Part shown: in pieces, positions 18,843-37,094 of the stretch
Layout: every line of letters begins with the position of its first letter
Numbering within the stretch: the stretch's first letter is position 1
Assembly: GCA_020721865.1 (NCBI GenBank)
Contig: DYLW01000013.1
Coordinates: 1 to 62,399 of the forward strand
Length of the DNA: 62,399 nucleotides
DNA from: Leptospira biflexa
GTDB lineage: Bacteria > Spirochaetota > Leptospiria > Turneriellales > DYLW01
Direction: 5' to 3'
The notes under the pieces: model-generated
The model's input: only the letters and a program-made list of their open reading frames with translations
What the model was told of the DNA's origin: nothing
Database searches by the model: none
Position numbers and translations under genes: made by a program

Positions 18843-19286
18843 TTACGGCAACAGGGCGGCACAGTCTTCGCATTTGCCGGCGGCCTGGGCATCCCGTGCA
18901 TAATCTGACGGGCGGCGGGAATCAATATCCACCAGGTTTTGATCCGCTCCGGCTTTGAGGAGAATCTCTATATTTTTGGTCATCCCATTCATGGCGGCAA
19001 TATGCAGGGCATTCATCTGGAGCCGCTCCACCTTCAGGTTCACTTTGGCACCGTTCTTGAGCAGAAGCTGGAGAATTTCCGGGGAATTCATGCCGGCGGC
19101 ATAATGCAGAGCCCCAAACCCATATTTATCCAAAGCGTTCACATCCGCCCCGGCTTTGAGGGAGGTTTTCACCAGCTCCACATCCATCTTCTTAACCCCT
19201 TTTATCAGATCCCACTGGGGATTAGCTGTGATGGTGACGCTCACCAAAAGAAAGGTGACGCTCACCATAATTTTTTTAAATTTCAT
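18843..19286 (-). CDS. Secreted ankyrin-repeat protein
   Basis: Signal peptide, ankyrin repeats (GADVNALDKYGFGALHYAA; ALHIAAMNG...LLKAGAD) and C-terminal CEDC. SD AGGAG, 17 nt after the giant gene's stop. Confidence 0.9.
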   Translation of the reverse strand: MKFKKIMVSVTFLLVSVTITANPQWDLIKGVKKMDVELVKTSLKAGADVNALDKYGFGALHYAAGMNSPEILQLLLKNGAKVNLKVERLQMNALHIAAMNGMTKNIEILLKAGADQNLVDIDSRRPSDYARDAQAAGKCEDCAALLP

Positions 19287-19303
19287 TTAATCTATTCTCC
19301 TTT

Positions 19304-22300
19304 TTATCTGACCACTACTACGGTTCCCCGGTAACGGTTGCTGCCGGCACGGATGGAATACATATACACCCCGCCACGCACGTAGTTGCCGTAATCGTCC
19401 CGGCCGTCCCAGTAGACACTGCCCTGGTTGTACGTATTATCTTTCACCCAGTACCGGACTCTTTTCCCGTCCATGGTATAGATGGCCACCTCATACTTCT
19501 TCGCGGAGGCATCCAGATCAAACGTGAGTTTCATGTTCGCGAATGTTTTGTACCCTTCAGCATAGTCTTTTCCATTTACATAATAGGAGTCTGTCCGGCC
19601 GGGGGTGAATACCCGTGGGAAGACTTCCACATTGTCGATGGGGGCATCTGCCGATTTGGAGAGTATGGTGTAGGTGCGGTGCAGGTAGGTGATATTTGCG
19701 GTGACCGTGTTATCGGAAGGATTCACCGTGCCGCCCACTTTCATCCATTTCTTACGGGTATACTCCCAATAGAAGATAGAAAGGCTGGATTCACCCCACC
19801 CATTGGCGGAAATATCCGCGTCCGAATATCCCAGAATCAGGGTGGCGTCGCTCTTGAGCTGGTTTTCCACCACGGGCGTATAGCTTCCGGATTTTTCCAT
19901 TTCCGTGATGACGTTGAACACATAGTGTCCGCCCCGATTGGAAACGCTATAGGAACCATAGTCGCTTTGCTGGCTGCCGATGTCTGCAAGGATACCATAA
20001 ACCTGGCTGGCAGTTTCTTCCATGCGGATATTGATCCGGGGGGAGTTATCCAGAGCACCGGGAGGCAGAATGAGCCGGGATTTAAAATCGCTCATGTTAT
20101 ACACTTCCTGGGTGGCCACGGCGTCTCTATCCAGTTTTTTATACTTAACCTGATAGGGACCGGGCACTTCGTTTTCCGGGCGGGTAATCACACCCTTGGT
20201 GACAGTGAACGTACTCCAAGTTTTTTTCTGTTCCACGTCTGCATTCTTGAGAAGATAATCCACGCTTTCCAGCAGGGAGCTCGATGAGTTTACTTTTACC
20301 ACATAGTTGCCATCGGCCAGCCGGTCAAAAATATAGGTGGGATACTCTCCTTCTCCGTTTTTCTTGTACACGGAAACTGGTACGGTGGCATTGCTCACAT
20401 CCACTGCACGGGTGGTCCCATTGGACTGGTACAGGGTGAACTGGAGGGAGGAAAGCACGGACTTCATCCCGGCATTGGTGTCCTGGTATTTGGGGGCAAT
20501 CTGCCCGATGATCCGCCCATAGGTGGGTTTGCGGAAATACTGGTAAACCGGATTTCCATTTTCTATGGTGGATTTGGGATCCCCGCCCACTCCGACTTTT
20601 TTTACCCGGGAAGACAATTTCAGGTAATAGTTACCATTGAGGAACGTGGCCGGGGTTGTATTCCCACCAATAATCTCCCCTTTCGCGTCATAGGTATAGG
20701 TCTGGGTGTCTTCCGCCTGCAGGTTATCATCCAGATTCTCCGGAAGGGTAAACGTGATGGTGATTTTATCAATCTCGCCGATGGCCAGACCACCTCCGGT
20801 AAGGCCGGAATAGTCCACCGGAATGCGGAGAGTCTCAAAATGGGTTCCATCCGCACCGTCCGCATCTGCACCGTAGCTTCCATCCTGCGTGTACAAATCC
20901 AGCAGGTTGACACTCAGATTAGAATAATCTTCCGTGGCGGTGGAAATACTGGCCGGCAGGGTGATGACTCCGCCCTTGGAGCTGGATATCGTCACTTTAT
21001 CCGCAGAGGTGAGAATTTTATTCCAGAGGGTGTGGACAGCTCCCGCCCCATGATTAGAAACATCCATTTCAGAAAGATAAATGTAAGCATGGGATATTTT
21101 ATAGTTCTGGGAGCCGTTCTGCAACAGGTACGTGATCTGGGCTTTATTCCCCAGAAGAGAGACCACATAGTGGGAATCCGTGTATTGTGCCAATTTTGCT
21201 ATATCGTTTTCGCTGGACACGTCATACAAATCTGGATCCACAAAAAACTGAGAATACCCAATGGAATCCGTATCCGCATTCAGCAGGGTCAGACGCAGGG
21301 TTTTGCTGGGATCCAATCCGGGGTTCAGGGCAATCCCCTGGCCGGTCATAACCGCATCAGCCTTGACCCATTTGTTTTCATCCGCCTTGTTCTCATTCCC
21401 TGCCGTTGTGAGAACTCCAGAATGGTTATCCGCATGGACAACCAGATCAATGTTCCCGCTGGTGCTGGAAGACTCTTCAATGCGGAACTGGATGGTGTCG
21501 CTTTCTCCGGGACGCAGGCCGTTTTTGGCTTCATAGTCGATGGTATACACTCCGCCATCATTGCCGCCATTCCCATCAGTATTTTGTCGCTGGGTGACAG
21601 TCGCATTCTTGGTGACAGTCAACCCATCCGGGGTATCCCAGCCCGCATTATCGGAATCAAATTTCACACCGGCCTGGATGTTCATGGTATCATCCGGAAT
21701 TTTTATCTTGAGACGGTAGATCACATTTCCCGGCTGGGTAGTGGAGCTGGCTGTATTCTCCACCCGGATCCGCAGAGTGTGGGTACGGGGAGCCCCAGTG
21801 GTGCCATCCACTTCATCCTCCATGACCATCTGGGGTTCCGTGATATAGGCAATGGCGGATGGATCGCTCTGGGCAATTTCAATCAGGTTGGATTCTTCCG
21901 GAAAGGATTTGATAAACGCATAGCCCCCGCCACTGGTTTCATACAGAGCGGACGCCTTGAAAGAAATTTTTCCGCCCAGACATTTCTCTCCAGCTTCACA
22001 GGTTCCGTTATCATTGCCGATGCTATCCCCGGAGATTTCCACCGGTGTTCCGGAGCGGGCAATGTTTTCTCTCAAATCGCGACGATTCGCCATTGCCAGA
22101 TCCGCTGCCACACTGCCGGCATCAAAGAATTTATCCGGCAGGGTGACAGTGATGGTATCGGACTGGTCTTTGGCGATGGGGGTGGCATAGCTAAGCTGGA
22201 GATAATTACACCGGTTAAAGGAATCCGGCTCATTGGAATTCAGGTCATCGGCGGAAATATCCGTGGTGTCATAGTGAATAGCTGTTCCCGCATCACATTT

Positions 22301-25300
22301 ATCAGCGTTTGTACTGGCGGCATTGTACACTCCGCTTTTAGTCAGTTCAAACGCCCCACGGGTGGAGCTCACATTGGCCGCACTTAAACCACTCAGATCA
22401 AAATAACCGGGAAAGGCAATCCGCACTTTGGTTATTTTGTCATCGGCATCTGTGGACTGGTTGGCTACTGTGAACGTGAATGTATTGGAGGAGGATTCCG
22501 CCTTGATCAAGCGGTTGTCCACCACGAAGTTGGATTTATACGTGGGTGTCACCACCTCTGTCTGGGTGGTTTTGCTGGAGCTGGAAAGCAGGGCGGCATC
22601 CGGAGAGACCACCGTGGTATCATTGAAATTCCCGGCTTTGAAAGTCCACGCATGGAACGCCAGAGTGGTTTCATCATGGGCCGCGTCAAAATGGAGGGCC
22701 AGCTTTTTACTGCCCACGTTCACCGGAGTCAGCCGGGCACTTTCGCAGAGCGTGATCCGGAGTTTATGGGGTAAATCATAGTCTCCCCCGTCTCCAGTAT
22801 CCACAATGGTATAATCCCCCGTGGCACAGGAATCCGTACTGCGGGTCAGGAGAGTGCCACCGGCGGTGGATTCCGGAGCATTCGCGGAAGGAATGGAATA
22901 CAGCCGGAAACGGGAGAAGGGGATGGCGGTGGCCGTACAGGAAGAACCGTTATCTTCTGCCACGCATTTGACCAGAGCCGGTGGGGTAATCTCCACCACC
23001 CGCAGGTCGTTATACTGCTCAGCCCGGTTTTCCACCAGAATCACCTGTTCCCAGGGATAGTCCGGATTTCCGGCGGATATTTTATTGACCGATTGCGGAT
23101 ACACATACATAATATGGAGTGCCTCCGGATTGGCCAGACTGAGGATATTCCAAGCCAGACCTGCCTCTCCGGTGCCAGTCACCGGATTTTCCGCCACGGC
23201 AGTGACGTAATCGACTATGGAATGGTAGTGCTCCAGATCGTCATTGGAATCTGCCGTCAGCTTGCCCGTAAAAAGCGGTCCCGGCAGATTGGTATGGGAA
23301 TAGGTGGCGTTGGTGAAAAGATCCGACCAATAATCGGTATACACATTCCAGGTGAGATTCTCCGCATTGGAATGGGTTCCGGGAACGTTGAAACTCCGTG
23401 TCTCTTTGAGGCGGAATTCCAGATTGGCCTGGGATGTGGCCAGTTTTCCCAGAGAGAAATTTACCAGAATATCACTGCCGGAGACGGTCATGGTGGTTCC
23501 CGCCGGCAATGCGTCCACACTCTGGAAGCTGGAAAGATCAAACTCCGCCGGAGGAGTGATTTTGAGCCGATGGATTTTTGCACTTCCGGAATTGGCGTTG
23601 ATGGTCATCTTGAAACGGTGGTAGTCTGTCACCGTGGAGCGGATGGACTGGTTGTTGATCCGGGATGCCGGGTTGCTGGGATCCGTGGGCTTCTCAATGA
23701 CTTCCACCTTCATGGAAGGACGGGTCAAAAATTCCGTGGTCAAAAGAGAAGACGGAATGGCCTCTTTATTCCCGTAGCCATTGCCGTCCCCGTTATAAAA
23801 CGTCGCATTCCACACCCGGGTGGTATCTGTATTGATGGAATGAGTCCAGGAAATGAGAGCGGATGCCGTGGCTGCCGGAGCTAACCCTGGAGCCGTCCAT
23901 ACCATCCGCAGAGCTTCTCCATCGGCACCGGTACAGGGGAATGCGGACGCGGAATTGTCTGCATTCAGAATACAGGTCACGGTCGCCGCCGGGGTGACAG
24001 TCACCGCCCCATCTGCCACACTCACTCCGGAAGGAACCTGGAGTTTGACTTCGGTTACGTAGTTGGAACCGCCACCGGTGGCCGCATTCTTTAAAAACAG
24101 CTTGGACTGGACGGTGTCTGTCCCGGTTGTACGGTATACCACTTTGGGTTCCATGGTGGCTCCCATCTCCGGAGGGGGTTTTTTATAGACAAGCTGATTG
24201 GTCTGGTTGTCCGTATCATTATACGCATCGTCCGTGTCTCCGGATCCATAGTATTTGGTGGAAGGAGCGTACTTTCCGGTGGAAAGGTCATTGGCTTCAT
24301 TATACAGATTCACCACAATGGATTGGGTACCAAAATCCGTGACAGAATCCGTAAAGGTGAAATTGACAACGTCCACCACAGAGGTTCCGTCTGATGCGGC
24401 TCCGGATTTGGGCAGGGAGTCCGCAAGGGCAGAATACTGGATGGTGAATGTCCGGTTGCCGGCATTCCAGGAGGAGGTATACTTACCGGCCATGGAGGTT
24501 ATGGTACCATTCGTGTCTCTCTGGATGGAATTGATGGTGGGTGCAGCGGAAACCATCCCGGCGGGGAAAACCACATCGTATTTGTACAGATTGTTCTCTG
24601 TCAGCGTAGCGGTATTTTTCACATAGAGGACGGCGGTGGTGGACGGTTCTGTGGCGTCCACATCATAATTTTCAGTGGCGGTTTTGGGACCAGTAAAAAA
24701 GGATACCCCGGTTGGATCCGGAAACTGGAGTTCCATATCCAGGGTCTTTGCGGTGGAGGCTTTTGCATACGAAAGTGTCCCGGAGGCATTCTCCAGTTTC
24801 ACATAAAAGGTACCGCTTCTTTTGGTGGTATCCCCATCATTCCCATCACAGGCCGATGGGTTGATGGTCTCAAAGATGCCATCAGCGTTGGTATCCAGAA
24901 CAGAGCATTTGCCATCCGCCCCGCCGGGATTGGTGAGGGACGCGTCCTGGCTCACTGTAAAGGTGATTATCTCATAAGGAGATCCGGTATCCTGGTTGGA
25001 GGGGATGGCTCCGGAACCCAGTCCGGCGTAATTGATGGTGACTGTTTTAGCTACATCATCAATGGTGGCTGTTGTATACGCACTCCCGGATGCAACCCCG
25101 GATACATAACGCTGCGTTGATATCCCGGTTATGGACAGAAAAGCCGGGTAATGGATCACCGTCTGGTTGATGTTGTTACTCTTTCCTCCGGTATTCACCA
25201 GCTTCATTTTGAGTTCGGTGGTTCCCTGGGTGACTTCGTTTGTGTATACTTCCGCCGGGGAATTGGCTTCTATACTCCGGTAAACAAACGCCTCGCCTCT

Positions 25301-28192
25301 GGGATCCGGCGGAGAGAGGGATACATTCCAGCTTGCCGCCGGGCTTTCCTGTCCCATGGAAAAATGGGGACCGGCGTCCGCATAATTGTGATTATCCGCC
25401 CGGAATAGAACGGGGAACGTGTGCAGAGGATCGTTGGTGGAACGGTAGTATTTCAAATCCATTTGGATTTCCAGCGTTTTTCCTTGTTGCAGATAACTGC
25501 CTGCGGGGAGATCAAACTGCATCACTTTCCAGTTATGGCCACCGAAACTTTCCTCCGTGGGGCCAGTAATGGTGGGAGAAATGGCCGTCCCATCAATTGT
25601 AATGTTATGAAAAGTTGCTCCCGTGATGGGCTCCGGATTGAGTCTTTCCCTCAAAGCATCCGCATCCCCGCCGGAATAGGTATCATCCGCTGCACAGTCT
25701 CCTTCATGAGGATCTCCGGAGGGACAGTTGTATACTTCAAAAGGAATCAGAATCTGCACCCTCTCAATAATGTTGGATGCCCCTCCCTGGTTTTTTATGC
25801 GGTACACCCCCTGGGGACTATTATGGTCAGTTCCGTTGGTGATGGTGGGGAAACTACTGTCTACGTTATTCGTGACCAGATTGGGATATGCCCAGCCGAT
25901 GGCATCCGGCGGTAATGCCCTTACAATGGTCTGCAGATTGGCAGCCACCGCATTGTACGCAGCCACATTCTGCTGGGTGGCGTCATCCAGAAAGCCGGGG
26001 GAATCCACATGGGCAGCCCATTGGGCGGTGATCTGGGTGTTCGCAGTGAAAAGCGGGGCTTTCTTGAAGAAAAAGGTGATCCTTTCAAAACCGCTTTTCC
26101 CCGGGATTTTGTATGTGGTGCCATAGCGAACCACCAGACGCCGGGGGGTTTCATTGGGATAATAGCAGAAATAATTCGTACAACCCGATGGATCCAGCAC
26201 ATTGGGGTCGCCGTTTCCATCGTCCGCGATGGTCTGGTATGCTGTGATGCCTTCCACTGCGTTGTCAATCTTCAGGGAGTCCACCATGGCAATATCTTCT
26301 GTGCCGTCGTTCAGGGCAAACTCAAACGGGGTGTCCCCTTCCTGTGGAAGATCAATGATCAGCCGGGTGATATCCGCTCCGTTGGATGTAGCCGATGTGT
26401 AAATTTCCAGAGTGGCCAGAGGATCCTCTTCCCCATAGTAAAGGGGATCAGGGCTCATAGTCACCTTCATGGTCGCTGACGGAGCATCATAGGTTTTTAC
26501 CAGAAGAGCCTCGGAGGACGCCGGGGTGGCCTTCATCCGGTGGGTGGTGGCATAATACACGCCGTCAGAGGTGTCCAGAATCCTTTCCTGGGCCGTATTG
26601 GCAAATTTCTCATTGCCCACCCAGGCGGTAAATTCCTCTCCGGTGGCATTGGCAGCTCCGGTGTTCAGGGTGAAATACACCCGGATATTGGCCCCCGCAG
26701 TGGTGGAGCGGAAAATCTGATTATCCCCCCAAGAGGTCTTCCGCAACCGCAGGACAAGGGTATTTCCGGTATTGTCCGCCGCCTCCAGAGTGAACGCGGC
26801 CACATTATTTGTATTGGGATTGGTGGTGGCAAGGGCGGTGGAAGCATCCGCATTCTGAGCGGTCAGTTTCACCTCTCCGGAGCCGTTGCAGGTTTTTCCG
26901 CTATTGCTATTGCTGGGATCCAGACACACTTCTATGGTGTTGAACACCCAGTTGGAACCGGAAAAACCGGCGGGCTTCTGGATATAAATCTCCCCCACTC
27001 CGGCGTCATTCGCACGGATGGACGGATTAAGCTTCAGCCCAAACTGGATATTGTTGGTACTCGCTAATGCCCGGTTATTCGTGGGCAGCGTCATTTCCGC
27101 CGTGACGGCATCTGCCACCGGACGCACCAGATAGTGATCGTACGCACCCTCTGCATAATCCGTAGTAAATTGTCTTTCCTCCTGGCCCACCATCACCTTC
27201 ATATTCGTATTGAACGGCACCGCCCGGCTGGTCACTTCATACCAGGCATTGGAATACCCAGTGTAATCCACATTGATATATGTCCCTGTCCGCCCGTGCG
27301 GGTTTGGGTTCATGTATATTCGCACCGTGGTACCATCGTGGGTCATCCGGATCCCCACCTCCCGGTCATCCCGTTTGTCCGGAACCCCATCCCCATTGGC
27401 ATCCAGATTCTGTGTGGATTTATCAAAAGTGGTGGAAGTCGCCAGATTAATATCCTGTTCCCCGCCGTAGTAGTACTGCCACATGGCCTCATTGGATTGT
27501 TTATCAAAAAGGAAAATAAAATTATTAATCGTATCAAAGTCATAGTCCTGCCAATCGCTATATTCGTGGGTATGAGAATCAGTAAAAGTGCAATCTGTTC
27601 CATCGGGTCTTTGGGTAAAACTGGTGCAACCACTGGTTGCCGCATTCGGAAGCATTTCTGATATGGATCCGGTGGATGATTCAATCAGCCAGATATTGTT
27701 TGTGTTTTGTGAATAGATGCTACTTCCACCCAAGCGTCCGTAATACCGGATTATCTGGAAACCAAAGGGCTGGCTTTCTGACGCAGAGTATTTTCGCTCA
27801 AAGCGGGCCACTCTTCCTGTCCATAAATTGTACGCCAGATCCCCATCATTCGGCCATCCGGCAACATAAAGGTAGGTGTCATTGGATATGGCATGGCTAT
27901 CCAGATTGCCGGTGGCAAAACGTATGTTGTCTCTGGCACTCCCATCTCCACCGCCATACCCATAAGTAAACCCACCTCTCTCCACATAGGCAAATTTATC
28001 CCTGCCCACCGGGAAATCCATGCACCACTGGTCAGTGGATACACTGGAAGAACAGGTATAATTTGTCCCGTTAAAGTCATCATGGTAATAATCCAGAGCC
28101 AGGGCCGGGGATGCCAGAGCCGTCAGAAAGAGGATTTGTATTACTGGTTTCATTAAATTTTTCATTATTCTTTTCATGTTCTTACCTCTCAT
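19304..28192 (-). CDS. Giant (~2,960-aa) secreted Ig-like repeat protein with a FlgD-Ig/T9SS-type C-terminal domain (paralogue B)
   Basis: Signal peptide (..ALASPALA), about 11 repeats of x-I/V-x-N..N-x-I-x-x-V-x-I-x-x-P, DxDxDG-like loops, paired Cys, and C-terminus VFPRVFTP..IYTMDGKRV..WDGRDDYG..GGVYMYSI..RGTVVVVR. Alternative start at 28177. Confidence 0.9.
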   Translation of the reverse strand: MRGKNMKRIMKNLMKPVIQILFLTALASPALALDYYHDDFNGTNYTCSSSVSTDQWCMDFPVGRDKFAYVERGGFTYGYGGGDGSARDNIRFATGNLDSHAISNDTYLYVAGWPNDGDLAYNLWTGRVARFERKYSASESQPFGFQIIRYYGRLGGSSIYSQNTNNIWLIESSTGSISEMLPNAATSGCTSFTQRPDGTDCTFTDSHTHEYSDWQDYDFDTINNFIFLFDKQSNEAMWQYYYGGEQDINLATSTTFDKSTQNLDANGDGVPDKRDDREVGIRMTHDGTTVRIYMNPNPHGRTGTYINVDYTGYSNAWYEVTSRAVPFNTNMKVMVGQEERQFTTDYAEGAYDHYLVRPVADAVTAEMTLPTNNRALASTNNIQFGLKLNPSIRANDAGVGEIYIQKPAGFSGSNWVFNTIEVCLDPSNSNSGKTCNGSGEVKLTAQNADASTALATTNPNTNNVAAFTLEAADNTGNTLVLRLRKTSWGDNQIFRSTTAGANIRVYFTLNTGAANATGEEFTAWVGNEKFANTAQERILDTSDGVYYATTHRMKATPASSEALLVKTYDAPSATMKVTMSPDPLYYGEEDPLATLEIYTSATSNGADITRLIIDLPQEGDTPFEFALNDGTEDIAMVDSLKIDNAVEGITAYQTIADDGNGDPNVLDPSGCTNYFCYYPNETPRRLVVRYGTTYKIPGKSGFERITFFFKKAPLFTANTQITAQWAAHVDSPGFLDDATQQNVAAYNAVAANLQTIVRALPPDAIGWAYPNLVTNNVDSSFPTITNGTDHNSPQGVYRIKNQGGASNIIERVQILIPFEVYNCPSGDPHEGDCAADDTYSGGDADALRERLNPEPITGATFHNITIDGTAISPTITGPTEESFGGHNWKVMQFDLPAGSYLQQGKTLEIQMDLKYYRSTNDPLHTFPVLFRADNHNYADAGPHFSMGQESPAASWNVSLSPPDPRGEAFVYRSIEANSPAEVYTNEVTQGTTELKMKLVNTGGKSNNINQTVIHYPAFLSITGISTQRYVSGVASGSAYTTATIDDVAKTVTINYAGLGSGAIPSNQDTGSPYEIITFTVSQDASLTNPGGADGKCSVLDTNADGIFETINPSACDGNDGDTTKRSGTFYVKLENASGTLSYAKASTAKTLDMELQFPDPTGVSFFTGPKTATENYDVDATEPSTTAVLYVKNTATLTENNLYKYDVVFPAGMVSAAPTINSIQRDTNGTITSMAGKYTSSWNAGNRTFTIQYSALADSLPKSGAASDGTSVVDVVNFTFTDSVTDFGTQSIVVNLYNEANDLSTGKYAPSTKYYGSGDTDDAYNDTDNQTNQLVYKKPPPEMGATMEPKVVYRTTGTDTVQSKLFLKNAATGGGSNYVTEVKLQVPSGVSVADGAVTVTPAATVTCILNADNSASAFPCTGADGEALRMVWTAPGLAPAATASALISWTHSINTDTTRVWNATFYNGDGNGYGNKEAIPSSLLTTEFLTRPSMKVEVIEKPTDPSNPASRINNQSIRSTVTDYHRFKMTINANSGSAKIHRLKITPPAEFDLSSFQSVDALPAGTTMTVSGSDILVNFSLGKLATSQANLEFRLKETRSFNVPGTHSNAENLTWNVYTDYWSDLFTNATYSHTNLPGPLFTGKLTADSNDDLEHYHSIVDYVTAVAENPVTGTGEAGLAWNILSLANPEALHIMYVYPQSVNKISAGNPDYPWEQVILVENRAEQYNDLRVVEITPPALVKCVAEDNGSSCTATAIPFSRFRLYSIPSANAPESTAGGTLLTRSTDSCATGDYTIVDTGDGGDYDLPHKLRITLCESARLTPVNVGSKKLALHFDAAHDETTLAFHAWTFKAGNFNDTTVVSPDAALLSSSSKTTQTEVVTPTYKSNFVVDNRLIKAESSSNTFTFTVANQSTDADDKITKVRIAFPGYFDLSGLSAANVSSTRGAFELTKSGVYNAASTNADKCDAGTAIHYDTTDISADDLNSNEPDSFNRCNYLQLSYATPIAKDQSDTITVTLPDKFFDAGSVAADLAMANRRDLRENIARSGTPVEISGDSIGNDNGTCEAGEKCLGGKISFKASALYETSGGGYAFIKSFPEESNLIEIAQSDPSAIAYITEPQMVMEDEVDGTTGAPRTHTLRIRVENTASSTTQPGNVIYRLKIKIPDDTMNIQAGVKFDSDNAGWDTPDGLTVTKNATVTQRQNTDGNGGNDGGVYTIDYEAKNGLRPGESDTIQFRIEESSSTSGNIDLVVHADNHSGVLTTAGNENKADENKWVKADAVMTGQGIALNPGLDPSKTLRLTLLNADTDSIGYSQFFVDPDLYDVSSENDIAKLAQYTDSHYVVSLLGNKAQITYLLQNGSQNYKISHAYIYLSEMDVSNHGAGAVHTLWNKILTSADKVTISSSKGGVITLPASISTATEDYSNLSVNLLDLYTQDGSYGADADGADGTHFETLRIPVDYSGLTGGGLAIGEIDKITITFTLPENLDDNLQAEDTQTYTYDAKGEIIGGNTTPATFLNGNYYLKLSSRVKKVGVGGDPKSTIENGNPVYQYFRKPTYGRIIGQIAPKYQDTNAGMKSVLSSLQFTLYQSNGTTRAVDVSNATVPVSVYKKNGEGEYPTYIFDRLADGNYVVKVNSSSSLLESVDYLLKNADVEQKKTWSTFTVTKGVITRPENEVPGPYQVKYKKLDRDAVATQEVYNMSDFKSRLILPPGALDNSPRINIRMEETASQVYGILADIGSQQSDYGSYSVSNRGGHYVFNVITEMEKSGSYTPVVENQLKSDATLILGYSDADISANGWGESSLSIFYWEYTRKKWMKVGGTVNPSDNTVTANITYLHRTYTILSKSADAPIDNVEVFPRVFTPGRTDSYYVNGKDYAEGYKTFANMKLTFDLDASAKKYEVAIYTMDGKRVRYWVKDNTYNQGSVYWDGRDDYGNYVRGGVYMYSIRAGSNRYRGTVVVVR

Positions 28193-28203
28193 GTTCTTAC
28201 CTC
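28174..28203. repeat. Perfect 15-bp tandem duplication at the junction of the two giant genes
   Basis: TCATGTTCTTACCTC x2 (28174-28188, 28189-28203). On the minus strand each unit reads GAGG-TAA-GAAC-ATG-A, i.e. SD, stop and start. Confidence 0.95.
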
Positions 28204-31200
28204 GCCACCACTATGGTTCCCCGGTATCTCTCTTTCCCGGCCTCAATGGAATAGATATACAGTCCGCCGTGCACCAGTTTCCCTTGGGTATCATAGCCAT
28301 CCCAGAAAATCTGCCCGCTCTGGAATTCTCCGGATTTTTCAAATTCGGCCACTTTTTTGCCACTCATATCAAAAATAGCCACCTTAAATTTGGGATAACT
28401 CTGATCCAGACTGAACTGGAGAGCCATACGGTTAAAATAGCGGCTGCCCCGTCCCGGTGTGAACACACGCGGGTTGATCACCACATCGCTGATGGCACCG
28501 CCTCCGGGGGAGGAGCCATAGACCCCGTAATAGCGGGTGAGGGTGGAGATGCCCACTTTAATGGAATTGGTATCCGGATTGGCTTTGCCACCTAATTTCA
28601 CCCAGTAGTTCCGGTATGGATCAAAGGAGAAGACCGCAAGCTGGCTCTCTGACCACCCATTGGCCGCGATGTCCGCTTCATCATACCACAGCTCCAGTGT
28701 GGATTCCACGGAGGTCTCATTGATGCCTTTATCATTTTCCCGGTGGAACAGGTCGATGTTTTCCAGCACCGTTCCGGCGGAATTATACAGATTCAGAATA
28801 TATACCGGGGCCAGATTGATGGAGGCCGGGGAGGCAATTTTCTCTTTTCCGGATGCCAGAGCACTTTCTATCTCATAGCGTTTGGCGTCGGAGCCAGACC
28901 GCAGATCGCCAATATTGGTGCAACTGGCACGGACGGTGAAGGTTTCATTCACTCCATCCGGGGGGACAGTCACCCGTGCACAGATGGACGCCCCATCCCG
29001 TGCCACGGCAATATTATCCTCCGTTCCACCCACCGTAAACGGGGCTTCCTTGAGAACGTATGGCTCCACGAGGGTTCCGATGTCCAGCTTTTTCCCCCTC
29101 TGGAGGCGGACAGGTACCCGCAACGCGGAGTATTTGGGGGCGGTAAAACTCAGGATCACATCCCTTGTGGCCGTACAGGTGGCCTCATTGTTATAGTCCG
29201 TGCACAGAGGAATCACCCCGGCGGAAATCCCAGAGACGGTGTTGTCATTGTCCCAAGTTCCGGAAAACTCAAATGCCCCGGTTCCAGCCACCGTGGTAAT
29301 ACCGATGGGAGAATTGCCATAATCCATGAGGGGATTTCCGGCAGAATCCAGCACACTCACGCTCACCTCCAGAGGCTCTTCTTTGGGGTTTTTAAACGGA
29401 GTGACGATTCCTTTCACATAGCCATAGGGGGCTTTTGCTATCCGGAAGTCCTGGGTTTCTCCGCTGGCGGCGGTGAAGATGGAGCGATAGCATTTTTCCG
29501 TGCCGTCCTTGAGATCATTCTTCAGGTTGTCGTTGTTTGTATTGGGACACGAAGACAAATCGTCCGTGGTATTGAAATAGCGGGTTTCCATGGTGAGGGT
29601 GGTTTCATTGGCATCGGTGAGAGTGCCTGTCAGAGGGATGGTCAGAATATCCGTTTCCCCGGCTGCAAGCCCTCCGCCGGCAAGACTGGAATAATCTACC
29701 AGCAGAATGGGGTCAGTGGCATCCAGAGACACCGCTCCACCTTTTGCGGAGACGACCGTTGTCTGAGTCACTATCGGAGATGCCCCACCAAATAAATGGT
29801 GCGGCACGCGGATGGCCACCGCTTTGGTGGGGGCTCCCTTGGGACGGATGCGGTATTTGAGAGTATGGGCGATGGTGGCTGTCCCGGAGACTTTGGTCAG
29901 ATGGAACAGATTCTTTCCTTCAGAAATATCGGAATACATCACGCCTTCCGGGTAGATAAAGTCATGCAACAGTGTCTGGCCGGAGGGAGGAGTCAGAACC
30001 TTCACGTTGGCATTGGAACTGTTATACATCACGTCGTCCGCTGTTCCCGTGGAAACAGCCTCGCTGTTCGTGACCATCACTTCATAAGCCTGGGCATTTT
30101 CCGGGGGATTCAGCAGCTTATAATCCACGGGGATGGAGAGCATGAGTCTTTGCTGGCCTTGAAATTTATCGTTGTTATATTTAATGGTGATGATTTTATT
30201 TCCCTCCGCATCATCGACTGCCGTCAGGGTGGCATCGGCGGTGCTGATCAAACCACTGGCCGTGGTATGCAACCCGCCATCACAACCACCCGCAGTCTGA
30301 TTAAAAGAAGTCGTATAAACAGACGCATCAGAATTAATACAGTGATTATCTTTGAAATAATCTTCATTGTTCCCCGGTGGTTCCAAAACCCCTCCCGTAG
30401 TAGAGTCTTTTTTCGGAATCTTGATCTTCACGCCCCGTATGTCATTCTGTGTGGAGCCGGGGTTATTGATTACAATTCGGATTTTTCGCCGTTTATTCAA
30501 GTCTGTATGCCAACCGTTAGCACTCAGGGCATGGATGGTGGGATCGCTGTTATTGAAACCTGTGAAATTTACCCCACCGGTTGTCTTCAGTTGCAGATCC
30601 CCGGAATAGATATACGCTTCCCCCGCGGGGGCGGGACGCTTCATGGAGATATAATCACTTTTTCCGGAAAGGATGCTCGCCACATAGGGACCGGAGGTAT
30701 AGCGGGTGTTGTAGTTTACCTCCACCACAAATTTATCCCCGGCAGCGGCAGGGTTGGGATAGAGATCCGCACTTCCGGCGGCGATTCCTGTCCCCAGATC
30801 CGTGAATTTAAAGGTGACATAGTCATTGGCCTGTCCGGAAGGGAAAATCCGCCCATCGTCCGTGGGATTGGCACTGTCCCGGCAGAGCTCCACCTGCACA
30901 ATCTGAAGGGTGGTATTAACCTGGGTGGCTTCGGCATCGTCCGTGCAACCGGAAAGGCAGTGGAAATACTTCTGGTTATTCGTGCTGTCCGGACAGGATG
31001 TGGCGTTTTTATAGGTGAAATCCGTTCCGCCGGGATTGTGTCCCACCAGAGACAGCTTGCCGGATGTGGATGTGAACACATTCGCCGGTACCGTTATCTT
31101 TACTTTCTCTACCAGAGAGCCCTCATGTCCGGTATTTCTCACGATCACATTGGCTTTATGGGTGGTCTCCGTGTTGTAGAGCATATTCATATTTCCGTTT

Positions 31201-34200
31201 TCCCCGGCGTTCACATCCCCTTTCTCCACATAGAACTCGGAGGCGGTACCGGGCTGGTAATAGTGTAATGTGAGGGCACGGTTGGTGTTCGCGGAACTTT
31301 CCGCAACTGGAGAAGTGGCCACCGCCAGATTTTCCACTCCGTTTACGTCATTGGTGACGCTCACCGCAAAGAGAGCGGAAGGCGAGCCCGGCAGAGTGCC
31401 CACCCGGGTCATCGCAAAGTTGATTTTCAAGAGGTCATCTTTGGTAAATACACCATCCGTAAACTGGATGACCAGAGTATTGTTATCGGGGTCGTTATTC
31501 ACAATGGTGTAATCAGTACCTCCACCGGTCAGGAGGGAATTAGCTCCCTCCGGATCTTTTCTGATGGAAACTCCGGAATCATCCTCAATGGTGGAAATCA
31601 GGGCTGCCGGAGCAGTAATTTTTACATAGCGGATATTATTGGATACAATATCCGTGGTGTTCTGCACATATACGCTGAATTCACCATCATCGATGGTGGT
31701 ATCCGCCAAATCTCCCCAGGACGGGAAATCCTCTCCCAGGTGGTTGTATTTATTATCAAAACGAGTGGTGTTATTGGAAATATAGGCTGTGGCACTCATG
31801 GGAGGACGGATGAACTCCGTGGCTATGGATGTACCGGTAAACACATTGGCACTGGCATTTACCCAGTCGCCACCGTCGGGGGAATCTTTGTCGTAATCCG
31901 TATCCGCCAGGGCGTTCGTGGAACCATCGTCGTAATATACCCGCACATTCCAGTCATAACTGGCGATGTCAAAATTCGCCGGGGTTGCTTCTTTCTTGAA
32001 CTGGAAGGTCACATCATCCAGACTGCCGGCAGCGATGGAGCTGGACGATCCCTCATAATTTAGCACGATGGGATCGCCACAGTTTGCAGGAGTGGCCACC
32101 GCTCCGATGACACTGGACTGGATGGTCCCGTTCACAATACAAAACGAATTCGGCACCAGAATCTTTGCCCGGCGGATGGTCTTCCCCGTGCCGGCAGCAT
32201 TCTCATTCTGGATACGATAGGTGACCGTGGGGGTCTGGTTGATGTTATACAGTTTCACCGGATTCCCGGGCGAAGTGGTGTTTTTATCTTCAGAGGAGGA
32301 AAGCTGGACTTTGGGCATTTTCACCACATACAGATGGCGGGTGTTGCCGCTTCCTCCCAGTGTACCGGGATCATAGACCACCGTCTCTCCCGCATCGGAG
32401 TCATTTTCCGCATATACGATAAATTCATAGTCCTTTTCCGTGGAGATATCATTGGACAGTGTAAAATTGATGGTGTCTGTCCCCGTGGCTGCCAGATTCC
32501 CCGCCCCATAATCCACAATGATACACTTGGCATAGTCCGCGTGGTGTGCGGTCACATTGGCATGGCAGTCACCCACGGAAGCCGTGGCTCCACTGGTGGC
32601 GGAAACACCGGATATTTTCCCGTTCAGCTCGGAGGGGATGCCAATCTGGACGGCGTAGATGGCATTATTGCCCAAACCTTCGTTTTTAATACTATACTTC
32701 ATGGGATGAGCCACGGCAGAGCTCTGCGTGAGGGCAAAGGAACGCACCAGATATCCGGAGACGTATGCCTTGGGCCGGGCAATAGAAACTTCCACCGAAC
32801 CGGTGGAAGCAGCCCACTGGGCAGCAGTGGCCGCCTCAATATGGGCGTATGTGGCCTGGGTATCACTGGGATAGAATGTGCTATTCTCCACTCCCAGCTC
32901 ATTCTGTGCCCGTGCCCGCAACCCAATGGCCGTGCCTCCGGCAATAGCCTGATAATGCCCCATCTTAAACTGGATATACGTATCATCCGTTGCCGATGGA
33001 TCAATCCCGCCCGATGCGTGACCAGTAAAGTCGCAGTCGACGTATTTGGCTCCCCCCGCATCACTGCGGGAATAGGTGGCGTCTGCGTTACAGGAAATCC
33101 CGCCCGTGGTACCGCTGATAGCACCCGTCACCGTTGTAAATGCATGGGAAGCGTCCCCGGCAATCCCGCCTGCCCCGCTGGTCAGGGCTCCCGCCCCGGC
33201 GGTATCCCAGGCAGCTTCGGAGCCGTTCCGCAGATAAATACGGACTTTCTGGAGCTTAGTGCCGGGCAACCCCAGGTTTTTCAGATAATAGCGGATGGTA
33301 TTTTCTTTGCTTCCGTTGTCCCATGCCACGTTGATGTCCAGCTTGAGGGGGTCGCTTTCATTGTCATCGGCATCGGCAAGAGTATCGGGCTTATGGATCA
33401 CTTTAGCATAACCCACGGCGGTCAGGGGTTGGTTCACGAACGCAATGTCATTGGCACCGGAGATCTTCTCCACGGTTGCCATGCGGTTTTCTGGGGCGGG
33501 AGTCCCGGAATTGGATACCGTGGAAGTAAACGAGACTGTCCCTTTCGCAGAATTGCCTTCATCGGCGGTGAACACAATCTCATCGTTTTCCCCCGGAGCC
33601 AGGAAGGGGGAGGCGTAGGTGACTGTCACCACATTTCCCGCCAGCGTGACTGTCCCCCCTTTGATGGACTGGAGATTGGCAATACTGGAGAAGGTGGCCG
33701 GCACCGTAATTGTTACTTCCTTGATGACGTTTTCCACATTCGTGGGGTCTTCCACGGTGGAGGGGTTATATATAAGGTAGGAAAATTTCACGTTGTTGTT
33801 GCAACTGGTCACGTATAATTCCCTTGTATTCGATGGGGTGGCCACATAGTTGCTGCTGCATCCCGCCCCGGCATTGGTATAGGAGAACGTGGGGTGGCGG
33901 GTGATCTCGCTTTTGGCACGGGCGGCGGGGGAAACCCAGGTGAGAGCCAGAAGGCCGGAGCCATCCTTGGTGTATGCGTTATCCTGCAGAGCGTCTCCGT
34001 TTCCGTTGTCCACATAGCCATTAAACGTGAGTTCCTGGTTTGCACTCAGACTGGGGATATTATCCTCAATGGTAAACTGGATCTGGGCAATGTTATTGTC
34101 CCCTCCCAGAAGCCCCAGAAGGTTATTTCCACTCTGGCCGGACACATCATTCAACTGCACCACATAGCATTTGTCCACATTGGTAATGTTTCCACAATCG

Positions 34201-36935
34201 GCATTGGTGGTCTTGAGGCTGAAGTGGGATGGGTCGGTGGCGGACGTAAAACTGAATTGGCTGCCCCCGGAAGCGGCGGAATTCTTCACGGTGACGCTCA
34301 CATTGGATATTCCGTTAACCAAAGCCGCAGCAAAGTCGTCATCCGTGAGGTTGATCTGGAGGCGGCGGATGGAATTTCCCGCATTCCCCTGGTTGGTCAT
34401 GGTCAGAGTAACCGTCTGGTTCTGGTTATTACACAACCGCCCTGTGGTACTGGTGTCCCCGTCGTTGCACTCAGAATCCGGGGCGATCTTTACAATGGCG
34501 TTGGGTTTGGCTGGCCGTAGCTCAAAATATTGGGAATAAGTGCCAAAACTGCCGGTGGTGGCGGTGGTTCCGTTTGCCGCGTCCACTTCCGTGTTGTACA
34601 CTGTTGCGGTCAGTTTATAATATTGTCTTTGGGTGATATCCGAATTGTCCAGCTTTTTGAGCGGGGTATCGGTAATGTCCAGAATGATCTTGTCCAGTCC
34701 TCCGTTTCCGGGGATCCCGTTATCCGCCGAGGAAAACTGCACGGTGGCTCCGGTGGCATCCACGGAACAGCTTCCCACACCACAGATATTACTCTCTACC
34801 TGGCTGGTGGCAAAACTGGTCCCGGTGATCCCAAAGCCTTTGGATGTTCCGGAAGAGGTGTCCTGCACGTCCACCACCCCGCCCAGAGTCCAGGAACAAT
34901 TGGCGTTGGAAAGAGCCAGATTGTTCAGAGTACAGGTGGTTCCGTTCAGGGTGTAGTTGTACTCCCGAACCTCATAAAATATTTTATCGATATTGGAGTT
35001 ATTGGGATCCGATGGGGCCTGGATAAATGTCTGGAAATCATAGGGAACGCCCACGTACATAAAAGAGGGAGTGGTGGAGGCATAACCGGTGGGGATGTCC
35101 ATGGTTTTTATTGTAGTGGTATTATTGGCCCAGTTTGCCGTGGTGTCTCCCGCCAGGACTTTCTGCCAACTGGTGGTGGCAAAAAGCAGGCCATCGTTCC
35201 CGGTGGTATTATCCGTATGGGAAGCATCATATTTTTCATTCCCAATATAGACCACAAATTCCTTACCGGACAAGTCCGCAGTATTGGGAGCCGTAAGAGA
35301 AAATTCCACCGCAATGCGTTTTTCCGTATCCCCATTTTTAACGACGTCGTTATCTCCGCTGGACACGGAGCGGAAACGCAGGATAAGATCACTGCCACTG
35401 GCACAGACCGCTACGGAGCCATCCGCCGGCTGGCTGAATGTACAGGTGGTGCCCCGGTTATCCAGAGTAAGTTTCTTCACGTTTGCATAGCTGGTGGTTC
35501 CATCGCTGAACGCCGCCCCTCCTCCATGCGTGGAGTACACTCCGATATTGGCGGTATCCCAGGCTCCGGAGAAGGTGGAGGGTTTCACGATCTTAACTTC
35601 CGCAATCCCGGCGTCGTTGGCATTGATGGTGGGACTGATCAGCATCTTGAATGCCGTGGAGGTATCTTTCCGGACTTTGGTGGGGCTCATCTCCACTTTA
35701 GTGTCTGCCACATCTCCATCCGCCACGGAACGGACTAAGAGGTTATCCAGCTCCACCCAGTGCATTTCCGTATCCCTTCGTGGAGTCTCCACCCCCAGCA
35801 TGAAATTCATATTGTCTGTAAAAGTGGCTCCGACCGAACCAATGCGGATATATTCGTTGGGGAGAGCGTCGTAATTTCCATCCCCCTCAATGGGATTGGG
35901 GTTTGCATAAAAATAAAGAGTGTTTCCGTTATGGACAATCCGGATTCCCACCGGATTCACATTGGCGGCATTTGTGTTATGTATTGCATCTGTAAAATTA
36001 CCACTGTCATCTAACTGCCCGCCACCACCATCAGCAGTAGCTGTGGAATAGTAATCATCGTAATTCCATTGAAGAGGGGCTCCGGACAAATCCTGGGATT
36101 GACCATCCGGACGAACCGACGTGGAAAGATTGAAATCGGCTTCCGCAGAGGTGTAATAGCCCCACTCGCTCACCGGACTTCCCAATACCGGTTTCCAGGC
36201 ATAATATTTTTCATACAACCCCACAATATTGGTGAAAGGATGCGGTGGGATATTCCCATTGTTAAAAACCCCCGCCTCCGGCTGGTACAAATAGAACATG
36301 AACGCATTCTGGTGACGCTGGGATTCGTCGTTACTATTATCATCGCTGGGATCCAGGCGTGTCTTTACTTTTATTATCTGGATACCAAAAGGCTGGTTAG
36401 ACGACGCTGCATAGCTGGTTCCATGGTACACCGCCATTTTCCCCGTCCACACAGTCCAGTTATAGGCATCAATTTCCCCGTCGTCCCCACCCTCTGTAGT
36501 TATACTACCTGTGCCTCCGGTAAACGTGAGCAACCCATTACCCCCGTTATTGATCCGGAACAGAATGTCAGTACCCGACTGAGAATTATAAGACCCCTCC
36601 CGTCCATACGCAACCCCCCGGTTGGCATTGTCCCAGGTATCTGCGGTTCCGGCGGTGGCATTGCTCCAGCCAGCAGTGGGTACAGCAGAGAAATCTTCAT
36701 ACTTATACAAACTCTCCGCCCGGAGTGAGGAGAAGGTGACAGTCACCAGGAGAAGAGTGACTGTCACCCCAGGGGAAAACATGGGAAACAAGATTTTTGG
36801 CAAGGAGAAGGATTTTATTAATGATAACAGTCTATGAAAAATCAGCCACAACCCGGATGGCCACTCCGGGAGAGTCCCACGGTTTTTATGATGCACCCCA
36901 TTATAGAATTTTTCTTTATAAATATTTTTGCACAT
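28197..36935 (-). CDS. Giant (~2,910-aa) secreted Ig-like repeat protein with a FlgD-Ig/T9SS-type C-terminal domain (paralogue A)
   Basis: Same architecture as paralogue B. Signal peptide ends ..TFSSLRA. C-terminus INPRVFTP..IFDMSGKKV..WDGYDTQG..GGLYIYSI..RGTIVVAR. Start is uncertain (36977, 36935 with SD GGAG, or 36782). Confidence 0.9.
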   Translation of the reverse strand: MCKNIYKEKFYNGVHHKNRGTLPEWPSGLWLIFHRLLSLIKSFSLPKILFPMFSPGVTVTLLLVTVTFSSLRAESLYKYEDFSAVPTAGWSNATAGTADTWDNANRGVAYGREGSYNSQSGTDILFRINNGGNGLLTFTGGTGSITTEGGDDGEIDAYNWTVWTGKMAVYHGTSYAASSNQPFGIQIIKVKTRLDPSDDNSNDESQRHQNAFMFYLYQPEAGVFNNGNIPPHPFTNIVGLYEKYYAWKPVLGSPVSEWGYYTSAEADFNLSTSVRPDGQSQDLSGAPLQWNYDDYYSTATADGGGGQLDDSGNFTDAIHNTNAANVNPVGIRIVHNGNTLYFYANPNPIEGDGNYDALPNEYIRIGSVGATFTDNMNFMLGVETPRRDTEMHWVELDNLLVRSVADGDVADTKVEMSPTKVRKDTSTAFKMLISPTINANDAGIAEVKIVKPSTFSGAWDTANIGVYSTHGGGAAFSDGTTSYANVKKLTLDNRGTTCTFSQPADGSVAVCASGSDLILRFRSVSSGDNDVVKNGDTEKRIAVEFSLTAPNTADLSGKEFVVYIGNEKYDASHTDNTTGNDGLLFATTSWQKVLAGDTTANWANNTTTIKTMDIPTGYASTTPSFMYVGVPYDFQTFIQAPSDPNNSNIDKIFYEVREYNYTLNGTTCTLNNLALSNANCSWTLGGVVDVQDTSSGTSKGFGITGTSFATSQVESNICGVGSCSVDATGATVQFSSADNGIPGNGGLDKIILDITDTPLKKLDNSDITQRQYYKLTATVYNTEVDAANGTTATTGSFGTYSQYFELRPAKPNAIVKIAPDSECNDGDTSTTGRLCNNQNQTVTLTMTNQGNAGNSIRRLQINLTDDDFAAALVNGISNVSVTVKNSAASGGSQFSFTSATDPSHFSLKTTNADCGNITNVDKCYVVQLNDVSGQSGNNLLGLLGGDNNIAQIQFTIEDNIPSLSANQELTFNGYVDNGNGDALQDNAYTKDGSGLLALTWVSPAARAKSEITRHPTFSYTNAGAGCSSNYVATPSNTRELYVTSCNNNVKFSYLIYNPSTVEDPTNVENVIKEVTITVPATFSSIANLQSIKGGTVTLAGNVVTVTYASPFLAPGENDEIVFTADEGNSAKGTVSFTSTVSNSGTPAPENRMATVEKISGANDIAFVNQPLTAVGYAKVIHKPDTLADADDNESDPLKLDINVAWDNGSKENTIRYYLKNLGLPGTKLQKVRIYLRNGSEAAWDTAGAGALTSGAGGIAGDASHAFTTVTGAISGTTGGISCNADATYSRSDAGGAKYVDCDFTGHASGGIDPSATDDTYIQFKMGHYQAIAGGTAIGLRARAQNELGVENSTFYPSDTQATYAHIEAATAAQWAASTGSVEVSIARPKAYVSGYLVRSFALTQSSAVAHPMKYSIKNEGLGNNAIYAVQIGIPSELNGKISGVSATSGATASVGDCHANVTAHHADYAKCIIVDYGAGNLAATGTDTINFTLSNDISTEKDYEFIVYAENDSDAGETVVYDPGTLGGSGNTRHLYVVKMPKVQLSSSEDKNTTSPGNPVKLYNINQTPTVTYRIQNENAAGTGKTIRRAKILVPNSFCIVNGTIQSSVIGAVATPANCGDPIVLNYEGSSSSIAAGSLDDVTFQFKKEATPANFDIASYDWNVRVYYDDGSTNALADTDYDKDSPDGGDWVNASANVFTGTSIATEFIRPPMSATAYISNNTTRFDNKYNHLGEDFPSWGDLADTTIDDGEFSVYVQNTTDIVSNNIRYVKITAPAALISTIEDDSGVSIRKDPEGANSLLTGGGTDYTIVNNDPDNNTLVIQFTDGVFTKDDLLKINFAMTRVGTLPGSPSALFAVSVTNDVNGVENLAVATSPVAESSANTNRALTLHYYQPGTASEFYVEKGDVNAGENGNMNMLYNTETTHKANVIVRNTGHEGSLVEKVKITVPANVFTSTSGKLSLVGHNPGGTDFTYKNATSCPDSTNNQKYFHCLSGCTDDAEATQVNTTLQIVQVELCRDSANPTDDGRIFPSGQANDYVTFKFTDLGTGIAAGSADLYPNPAAAGDKFVVEVNYNTRYTSGPYVASILSGKSDYISMKRPAPAGEAYIYSGDLQLKTTGGVNFTGFNNSDPTIHALSANGWHTDLNKRRKIRIVINNPGSTQNDIRGVKIKIPKKDSTTGGVLEPPGNNEDYFKDNHCINSDASVYTTSFNQTAGGCDGGLHTTASGLISTADATLTAVDDAEGNKIITIKYNNDKFQGQQRLMLSIPVDYKLLNPPENAQAYEVMVTNSEAVSTGTADDVMYNSSNANVKVLTPPSGQTLLHDFIYPEGVMYSDISEGKNLFHLTKVSGTATIAHTLKYRIRPKGAPTKAVAIRVPHHLFGGASPIVTQTTVVSAKGGAVSLDATDPILLVDYSSLAGGGLAAGETDILTIPLTGTLTDANETTLTMETRYFNTTDDLSSCPNTNNDNLKNDLKDGTEKCYRSIFTAASGETQDFRIAKAPYGYVKGIVTPFKNPKEEPLEVSVSVLDSAGNPLMDYGNSPIGITTVAGTGAFEFSGTWDNDNTVSGISAGVIPLCTDYNNEATCTATRDVILSFTAPKYSALRVPVRLQRGKKLDIGTLVEPYVLKEAPFTVGGTEDNIAVARDGASICARVTVPPDGVNETFTVRASCTNIGDLRSGSDAKRYEIESALASGKEKIASPASINLAPVYILNLYNSAGTVLENIDLFHRENDKGINETSVESTLELWYDEADIAANGWSESQLAVFSFDPYRNYWVKLGGKANPDTNSIKVGISTLTRYYGVYGSSPGGGAISDVVINPRVFTPGRGSRYFNRMALQFSLDQSYPKFKVAIFDMSGKKVAEFEKSGEFQSGQIFWDGYDTQGKLVHGGLYIYSIEAGKERYRGTIVVAR

Positions 36936-37094
36936 ATCCCTTCTCCATACGGTATTATATAACGGCATTTTCCCCAATACTCAAAGAAGTGGACGCAACA
37001 GGCAACGGAAATACAACACAAATAATAATTTTTTTTACGGGGGAATTCCGCAGTAAAAGAATCGACACCGGGAATGCGGAATTTGGAATTGTCC

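Follow-up and report, generated by a model that had tools for sequence, protein, structure and literature searches.

The closest known parallel to the genes described here is the SprB/SprF pair of Flavobacterium johnsoniae, a T9SS type B cargo with its PorP/SprF-family carrier. According to the available portions of the published accounts, type B cargo stays on its own dedicated carrier (PMC12635249), a dedicated carrier travelling with its cargo is the type B pattern (PMC12635249, PMC9143113), and the twin-cysteine C-terminal tail of SprF ties the carrier to GldK (PMC12635249). The accessible part of a genome survey recorded the T9SS in 60 of 97 Bacteroidetes genomes and in none elsewhere (Abby 2016, PMC4793230), and further reviews and surveys, in the excerpts available, confine it to Bacteroidota or the FCB group (PMC12398890, PMC10202324). 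No description of a T9SS in spirochaetes was found in the literature, as far as titles and the opening parts of abstracts mostly tell. T9SS parts had been expected to be absent from the present genome, which nonetheless encodes a SprA/Sov-like protein and a PorV/PorQ-family barrel that scores above its family cut-off.

In this study, a stretch of spirochaete DNA of 62,399 nucleotides (the window; contig DYLW01000013.1) was analysed together with its source genome (2.66 Mb, 90 contigs, 98.7% complete). The window holds two giant genes, A and B, whose family has the following features in common with SprB/SprF: a giant repetitive putative surface protein, a C-terminal domain (CTD) that is a candidate sorting domain, a PorV/PorP-like barrel gene that adjoins in most relatives, and a putative SprA-type translocon encoded in the genome. 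Unlike SprB/SprF, there is no sequence relation beyond the CTD, and two paralogous cargo genes are present per barrel. The source organism had been assigned to the Leptospirales; it does belong to the same class as family f3, which was taken as Leptospira-like, but to another order, so that label is imprecise.

Architecture of the two giant proteins

The original prediction described an operon of two co-directional paralogous giants, each with a signal peptide, and the reading frames agree with it: two minus-strand open reading frames of about 2,860 and 2,950 aa lie 4 nt apart. The features of the pair are as follows:

28197..36782, minus strand: gene A, the upstream member of the giant pair, with 2,861 aa when read from the ATG at 36782 within the open frame 28197..36977; homologous to B in head and tail, and placed in the "upstream" clade of the head tree
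36717..36782, minus strand: putative signal peptide of A (MFSPGVTVTLLLVTVTFSSLRA), read by eye from the translation
34803..36782, minus strand: head of A, a ConA-like jelly roll plus the first Ig-like domains, with homology to B's head (profile E 2.8e-185)
30384..34430, minus strand: eight Ig-like repeat units of A, by HMM, at mature positions 785, 992, 1155, 1353, 1512, 1694, 1869 and 2094
28200..28799, minus strand: tail of A, a pre-CTD beta-sandwich and, as the last part of the protein, a FlgD_ig/CHU_C-like CTD (FlgD_ig match 28236-28430)
19304..28192, minus strand: gene B, the downstream member of the giant pair, with 2,962 aa; the database copy begins at an alternative start at 28153, which gives 2,949 aa
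26273..28153, minus strand: head of B, a signal peptide, a ConA-like lectin/glucanase jelly roll with insertions, and Ig-like stalk domains (AF2 and Foldseek)
21674..25834, minus strand: eight Ig-like repeat units of B, by HMM, at mature positions 774, 970, 1166, 1342, 1506, 1695, 1885 and 2119
19307..19906, minus strand: tail of B, two beta-sandwiches of which the last is the CTD (FlgD_ig match 19343-19537)
18843..19286, minus strand: a small secreted ankyrin-repeat protein of 147 aa with a signal peptide, directly 3' of B

The open frame of A starts with TTG, and a hydrophobic N-terminus first appears from the ATG at 36782 (MFSPGVTV...; MFSPGVTVTLLLVTVTFSSLRA/ESLYKYEDF), which is most likely the true start. 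The sequence GGCGAGG stands immediately 5' of the first ATG of B, which follows the stop of A after 4 nt. Judged by eye, the N-termini of both proteins look like Sec signal peptides. A scan for promoters and terminators returned 31 promoter-like sites against 20.5 +/- 4.0 in shuffled sequences and 26 terminator-like sites against 19.7 +/- 5.1, including one weak promoter-like site at 36840-36812. The ankyrin-repeat protein is conserved only in the closest relative (locus L013) and is therefore probably not a core part of the system.

All of the head motifs quoted in the original prediction occur in both proteins. Using BLASTP, 773 columns of the heads of A and B align with 25% identity (E 3e-35) and 187 columns of the tails with 42% identity (E 5e-41), and the middle regions yield scraps of alignment only. 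Searches of A and B against Pfam and NCBIfam matched nothing outside the last ~70 residues, and no Pfam repeat family was found. The expected 11 copies of the strand motif N..N.I..V.I..P in each protein did not hold up, since the literal motif occurs once in A and not at all in B; an iterated HMM built around it (E<=0.01) gives eight repeats in each. The positions of these repeats differ by no more than 25 residues between A and B, so the domain boundaries are colinear, and the relatives carry 7-11 copies. The repeat segment led to DUF11-type clusters with an Atlas score of 0.87, which lies below the 0.9 mark and is to be read as a lead only; the strand motif of both proteins is one that we take to resemble DUF11. 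The cysteines stand in close pairs, 15 in A (5-21 residues apart) and 11 in B (5-29 residues apart), in agreement with the Cys-bridged loops that had been noticed, and this spacing fits disulfide-stapled loops in an oxidising compartment.

The head of B was modelled with AF2 from its first 627 residues and an alignment of 26 heads, with a mean pLDDT of 75.1. In Foldseek, the N-terminal part of the model resembled ConA-like jelly rolls, including GH16 lichenases, PL7 alginate lyases and legume lectins; this likeness is one of fold only, with a TM of about 0.5 on the target and 7-10% identity. The remainder of the model resembled the Ig-like stalks of the Gram-positive adhesins PrgB, Sgo0707 and Aap. 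No invariant Asp/Glu column was present in the jelly-roll part of the 26 aligned heads, and the head profile had no match among PDB sequences. The model and the alignment suggest a head that would be lectin-like rather than catalytic. In its arrangement of a lectin-like head on a beta-sandwich stalk, the predicted protein is similar to the Gram-positive Ig-repeat adhesins and to DUF11/CARDB repeats.

Family and ancestry of the pair

The cargo family is rare. A word-indexed search with the head of B recovered 7 proteins among 5.8 billion, and a full HMM search with the head profile recovered 148 cluster representatives among 1.84 billion. Full-length head matches were mostly 2,200-3,200 aa long, beside which the search returned a group of head-only proteins of about 450-520 aa; the single source name encountered for a family member is "hypothetical protein". 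Among species-representative genomes, the full-length relatives were found in MAGs labelled Leptospiraceae or "Leptospira biflexa"/"Turneriella" (sulfidic-cave bins), in a single MAG under the name Caldithrix and in many under Brevinematales/Brevinematia, a group to which the complete genome CP053071.1, with two loci, also belongs. The head was detected in 37 of the 301 sampled Spirochaetota genomes (23 of 126 genera), and in none of 45 genomes of a ~4.4-Mb family of the window's own class.

Both giant genes are visible in 13 of 21 related loci, and in all 13 they are arranged in tandem, with gaps that are tiny or overlapping. Seven of the other eight loci run into a contig end, and the remaining one, L032, has a giant gene with two head-only genes behind it. 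In a maximum-likelihood tree built from 26 heads, one branch with a support of 100/99 separated the 12 upstream from the 14 downstream copies, and the order of the lineages was alike within each half. This single split and the matching lineage order point to one ancient duplication, inherited since then as an ordered pair, which bears out the earlier suggestion that the duplication is old. Constant pairing, matching architecture and a single origin by duplication suggest that the two proteins may function together.

Head-only relatives of about 450-580 aa, consisting of the jelly roll and the first Ig domains with neither stalk nor CTD, were also observed in several genomes. These genes occasionally stand in tandem behind a giant, as at L032:6659-9792.

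C-terminal domain and candidate partners

The A and B tails had been described as closely similar and as resembling FlgD-Ig and CHU_C domains, and a check on PF13860, PF13585 and TIGR04131 had been proposed. The identity of 42% between the two tails and the matches across the family are in line with that description. When the 33 family tails were scanned individually (E<=0.01), FlgD_ig matched 33 of 33 (best 1.2e-11), CHU_C 28, Por_Secre_tail (PF18962) 11, TIGR04183 26 and TIGR04131 5; the C-terminal part of PorU matched 31, the C-terminal part of PorZ 24, and FlgD models 29. The class of the CTD is split accordingly, with Pfam leaning towards type B, NCBIfam towards type A, and TIGR04131 found in only five tails, a difference from SprB. 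FlgD_ig is the sole model above its curated cut-off on the tail (29.8 against 27); TIGR04183 reached 18.3 against 23 on B, and CHU_C 17.9 against 27 on A. All 33 tails finish in the strand Y.G[TS].[VI]..[RK] at the very C-terminus.

Against the PDB, the tail profile matched FlgD (1.7e-6) and the PorU CTD (7.5e-4), and the gingipain CTD only at E 0.12. The AF2 model of the last 200 residues, computed with the 33 tails as input alignment, had a pLDDT of 85.5 and consisted of two beta-sandwiches; in Foldseek it recovered PorZ (111 columns, rmsd 3.6) and PorU amid many generic tandem-Ig matches. The tail belongs to the same fold family as the T9SS CTDs. By sequence and by profile, the last ~70 residues match the Ig-like domain of the FlgD hook cap (PF13860; PDB 3osv) best. 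Unlike FlgD, which has about 140-230 aa and an N-terminal domain, the proteins studied here show FlgD_ig alone in Pfam, as the end of secreted proteins of ~2,900 aa, so that the match is one of fold family and does not imply a flagellar function. FlgD_ig was also considered as a phylum-wide marker of T9SS cargo and was rejected, as the domain is nearly universal in the phylum: 257 of the 301 Spirochaetota genomes sampled have it, among them members of families with no SprA-like gene (27 of 28 in f17, 33 of 38 in f15). The CTD family alone is therefore no T9SS-specific or secretion-signal marker in Spirochaetota. Thirteen of the 33 tails additionally matched NF053608, the Leptospira fibronectin-binding adhesin Lsa66 (best 2.9e-7), and Lsa66 may carry a related Ig-like domain in a lineage that lacks the SprA-like gene.

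The candidate partners encoded elsewhere in the genome are listed below:

C88:53593-59568 (L059:8593-14565): SprA/Sov-like protein, 1,991 aa (TIGR04189)
C4:77-1282: PorV/PorQ-family barrel, 401 aa (NF033709, 135.7 bits against a cut-off of 90)
C26:4854-6104: orthologue of the barrel that neighbours the pair in related loci, with 52-58% identity to the syntenic ones and sub-threshold on the models

The SprA-like protein matched TIGR04189 in three colinear segments with 157.8 bits (E 2.3e-46), below the cut-off of 200. The database proteins closest to it come from Leptospiraceae and Spirochaetia MAGs, are named "hypothetical protein" and have no Pfam domain, and relatives from E 6e-33 down carry PF14349, some of them being named "cell surface protein SprA". 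Neither phmmer nor a five-sequence profile found a PDB match for it. The search method works, as TIGR04189 matched in all eight FCB-type genomes that had been reached via CTD-only hits; SprA_N (PF14349) had no match in the present genome, a result that is uninformative since the control genomes were blank as well. Of the 301 sampled Spirochaetota genomes, 96 (from 61 of 126 genera) carry the SprA-like gene, always with a score below the cut-off, and in three large families it was found in 0/45, 0/38 and 0/28 genomes. With the C88 protein matching TIGR04189 in three colinear segments and the C4 barrel above its family cut-off, the genome encodes candidate counterparts of the SprA/Sov-PorV core of the Bacteroidota T9SS (PDB 6H3I, TIGR04189, NF033709). 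Unlike SprA/Sov, the spirochaete proteins, which are hypothetical in public sources, have about 1,900-2,000 aa against 2,319 model positions and score below the cut-off, which seven of the eight FCB-type genomes exceed. The SprA-like gene accompanies the head in 35 of 37 head-bearing genomes, compared with 96 of 301 genomes in the whole sample; of the two in which it was not found, one is a bin of 78% completeness and the other has weaker and shorter head matches only. As related genomes are not independent, this co-occurrence is a pattern and not a statistical test.

The C4 barrel, which also weakly matches the PorV chain 6h3i_F, stands back to back with a gene for a 5,295-aa protein (C4:77-17465, L060). 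The last ~90 residues of that protein match the tail profile (E 3e-11), and its sole Pfam match is a CHU_C-like end (20.6 bits); the C4 locus is a second cargo-carrier locus of the same genome. The tail profile hits only four proteins among the open reading frames of the genome, each at its C-terminus, and the two other than A and B adjoin PorV-like barrels. At C50:12151-13590 (L061:3151-4587), a signal peptide and a CTD-like domain make up an entire protein of 125 aa; 4 nt further on lies the gene of a 352-aa PorV-like barrel with a weak PorV-family N-terminus (31.9 bits), and the two may be a minimal cargo-carrier pair.

Of 21 related loci, 14 have a barrel gene of ~400 aa immediately next to the pair and in the same orientation; it precedes the pair in loci labelled Leptospiraceae and follows it in those labelled Brevinematia. 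The N-terminus of this neighbour barrel carries the motif R.RGMGNA...YNPA. Among seven such barrels tested, six matched PorV_fam along the full model length (E 8e-13 to 3.6e-4), four matched PorP/SprF and one matched nothing, all matches being below the NCBIfam cut-offs; hhalign aligned the neighbour barrel to the C4 barrel with a probability of 96.4%. Exactly one copy is present in each of the five pair-bearing genomes. The barrel is non-adjacent in the window, in L013 and in CP053071.1, where it lies ~77 kb from the nearer pair, and the C26 orthologue lies amid menaquinone-type genes. Unlike SprF, none of the 17 barrels examined has a Cys-X-Cys tail; most of the barrels (L014-L031, G000:C26, G000:C4) end in long Lys/Glu-rich low-complexity tails. 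In addition, GldK/L/M/N were not detected and the host is a spirochaete. The original prediction would have been contradicted by a genome with no barrel partners, and the SprA/Sov-like protein and the PorV/PorQ-family barrels described above show that this is not the case.

Prediction of a complex between barrel residues 30-385 and the tail of B gave a median score of 0.75 over three runs, where the best of three controls scored 0.00, with at least 76% of contacts common to the runs and a partner pLDDT of at least 69. The mark of 0.75 is reached by 58 of 80 solved complexes and by 2 of 110 mismatched pairs. The tail of B is thus predicted to dock on the C26 barrel, a result that may reflect the model's memory of PorV-substrate structures because such complexes have already been solved.

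GldL/GldM (PorL/PorM) were found in none of the five pair-bearing genomes; the same models were blank in all eight SprA-bearing FCB-type genomes, so the absence of the motor is not established by them. The catalytic part of the PorU sortase was absent from the matches: what the cargo tails match in NF033707 is the CTD-like C-terminal end of that model (positions 996-1084), and the sortase search, like that for the motor, had no working positive control. PorP_SprF (PF11751) had no match in the genome, and this is uninformative as the controls were blank too. Matches to GldK (TIGR03525) were dismissed as generic ones of the FGE-sulfatase type, the best of 78.4 bits against a cut-off of 350, and unrelated control genomes match as well. 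A 474-aa open reading frame of the window (38717..40141, minus strand), 5' of nadB, with a signal-peptide-like start and, by eye, a helical and repeat-like sequence, was considered as a partner of A and B and dropped, since it has no Pfam or NCBIfam match and is helical rather than barrel-like.

Export route and competing explanations

On this evidence, A and B are probably carrier-anchored surface fibres exported by a divergent T9SS-like route, a reading in which we place moderate confidence. Both proteins would first be exported by Sec, and would then cross the outer membrane via the SprA-like protein of C88, a putative divergent, spirochaete-type relative of the T9SS translocon. The C-terminal beta-sandwich domain would be captured by a dedicated PorV/PorP-family carrier barrel, that of C26 in this genome, which would hold the protein on the surface. 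Disulfide-stapled Ig-like domains would build a long stalk in each protein, with the lectin-like jelly-roll head outward, and the whole would serve as an adhesin or fibre whose head may bind carbohydrate. The proposed anchoring by CTD and barrel is unlike that of the Gram-positive adhesins, which use a sortase and LPXTG. The idea of CTD-dependent export, put forward before this analysis, gains support from the CTD profile matches, the colinear repeats and the barrel partners, and none of the three outcomes that had been named as speaking against it (no CTD profile match, non-colinear domain boundaries, no barrel partners) was encountered. The pathway had also been called uncharacterised; it appears not to be wholly unknown, being better described as a divergent relative of the T9SS. 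Counting against the carrier-anchored reading, the SprA-like protein falls below its curated cut-off and has no PDB match, and the barrel lies on another contig.

The CTD might instead be a structural Ig module of the FlgD_ig type and not a sorting signal, with A and B periplasmic or associated with the outer membrane by another route. We regard this as unlikely, even though FlgD_ig is the best-scoring family and is common in spirochaetes without the SprA-like gene, Lsa66 is matched by 13 of 33 tails, and every T9SS-specific match of the tails stays below its curated cut-off. A purely structural module is harder to reconcile with a domain that is always at the extreme C-terminus and keeps the Y.G[TS].[VI]..[RK] strand, with the SprA-like gene in 35 of 37 head-bearing genomes, with a PorV/PorP-like barrel adjacent in 14 of 21 loci, and with a predicted barrel-tail docking that passed its controls. 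If a sorting signal is accepted, A and B could still be type-A-like cargo, their CTD being cleaved and the proteins released or glycolipid-linked as a coat or S-layer-like sheet. The prevalence of TIGR04183 over TIGR04131 among the tails (26 versus 5 of 33) and the general PorV/PorQ-family barrel above cut-off in the genome point in that direction; however, the PorU sortase was not found, just its CTD-like end matching cargo tails, CHU_C is present in 28 of 33 tails, and a dedicated single-copy barrel goes with the pair, as the available text of two papers describes for type B cargo (PMC12635249, PMC9143113). A cleaved, type-A-like cargo seems quite improbable.

Within the reading of A and B as carrier-anchored surface fibres, the two chains may or may not combine. 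That they are independent fibres with different ligand specificities, merely co-transcribed and not heteromeric, is a real possibility held here with some reserve: their middle regions scarcely align and head-only relatives of about 480 aa occur elsewhere, but order and pairing have been kept in 13 of 13 loci with both genes visible after one ancient duplication, the repeats are colinear and the lengths nearly equal, and the genes are 4 nt apart or overlapping. A heteromer of A and B would be in keeping with these latter features.

A broader and more speculative proposal, which we advance tentatively and with considerable doubt, is that many Spirochaetota outside the Leptospira, Treponema-like and Borrelia-like families run a stripped-down SprA-based secretion, energised unlike the Bacteroidota T9SS, whose flagship cargo is an obligate two-chain A+B fibre on one carrier barrel. 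If this were true, the fibre would represent a kind of spirochaete surface appendage not seen before. The SprA-like gene in 96 of 301 sampled Spirochaetota genomes, together with a conserved cargo-plus-carrier module, makes a testable case for the surface display of very large proteins by spirochaetes. It would also be an instance of SprA-type transport for which the known motor was not found, with motor models that lacked a working positive control.

Elsewhere in the window, a 282-aa IstB/DnaC-like AAA ATPase (14248-15096, minus strand; IstB_IS21 2e-13) is encoded amid housekeeping genes, and may represent a helicase loader or what is left of an IS21 element.
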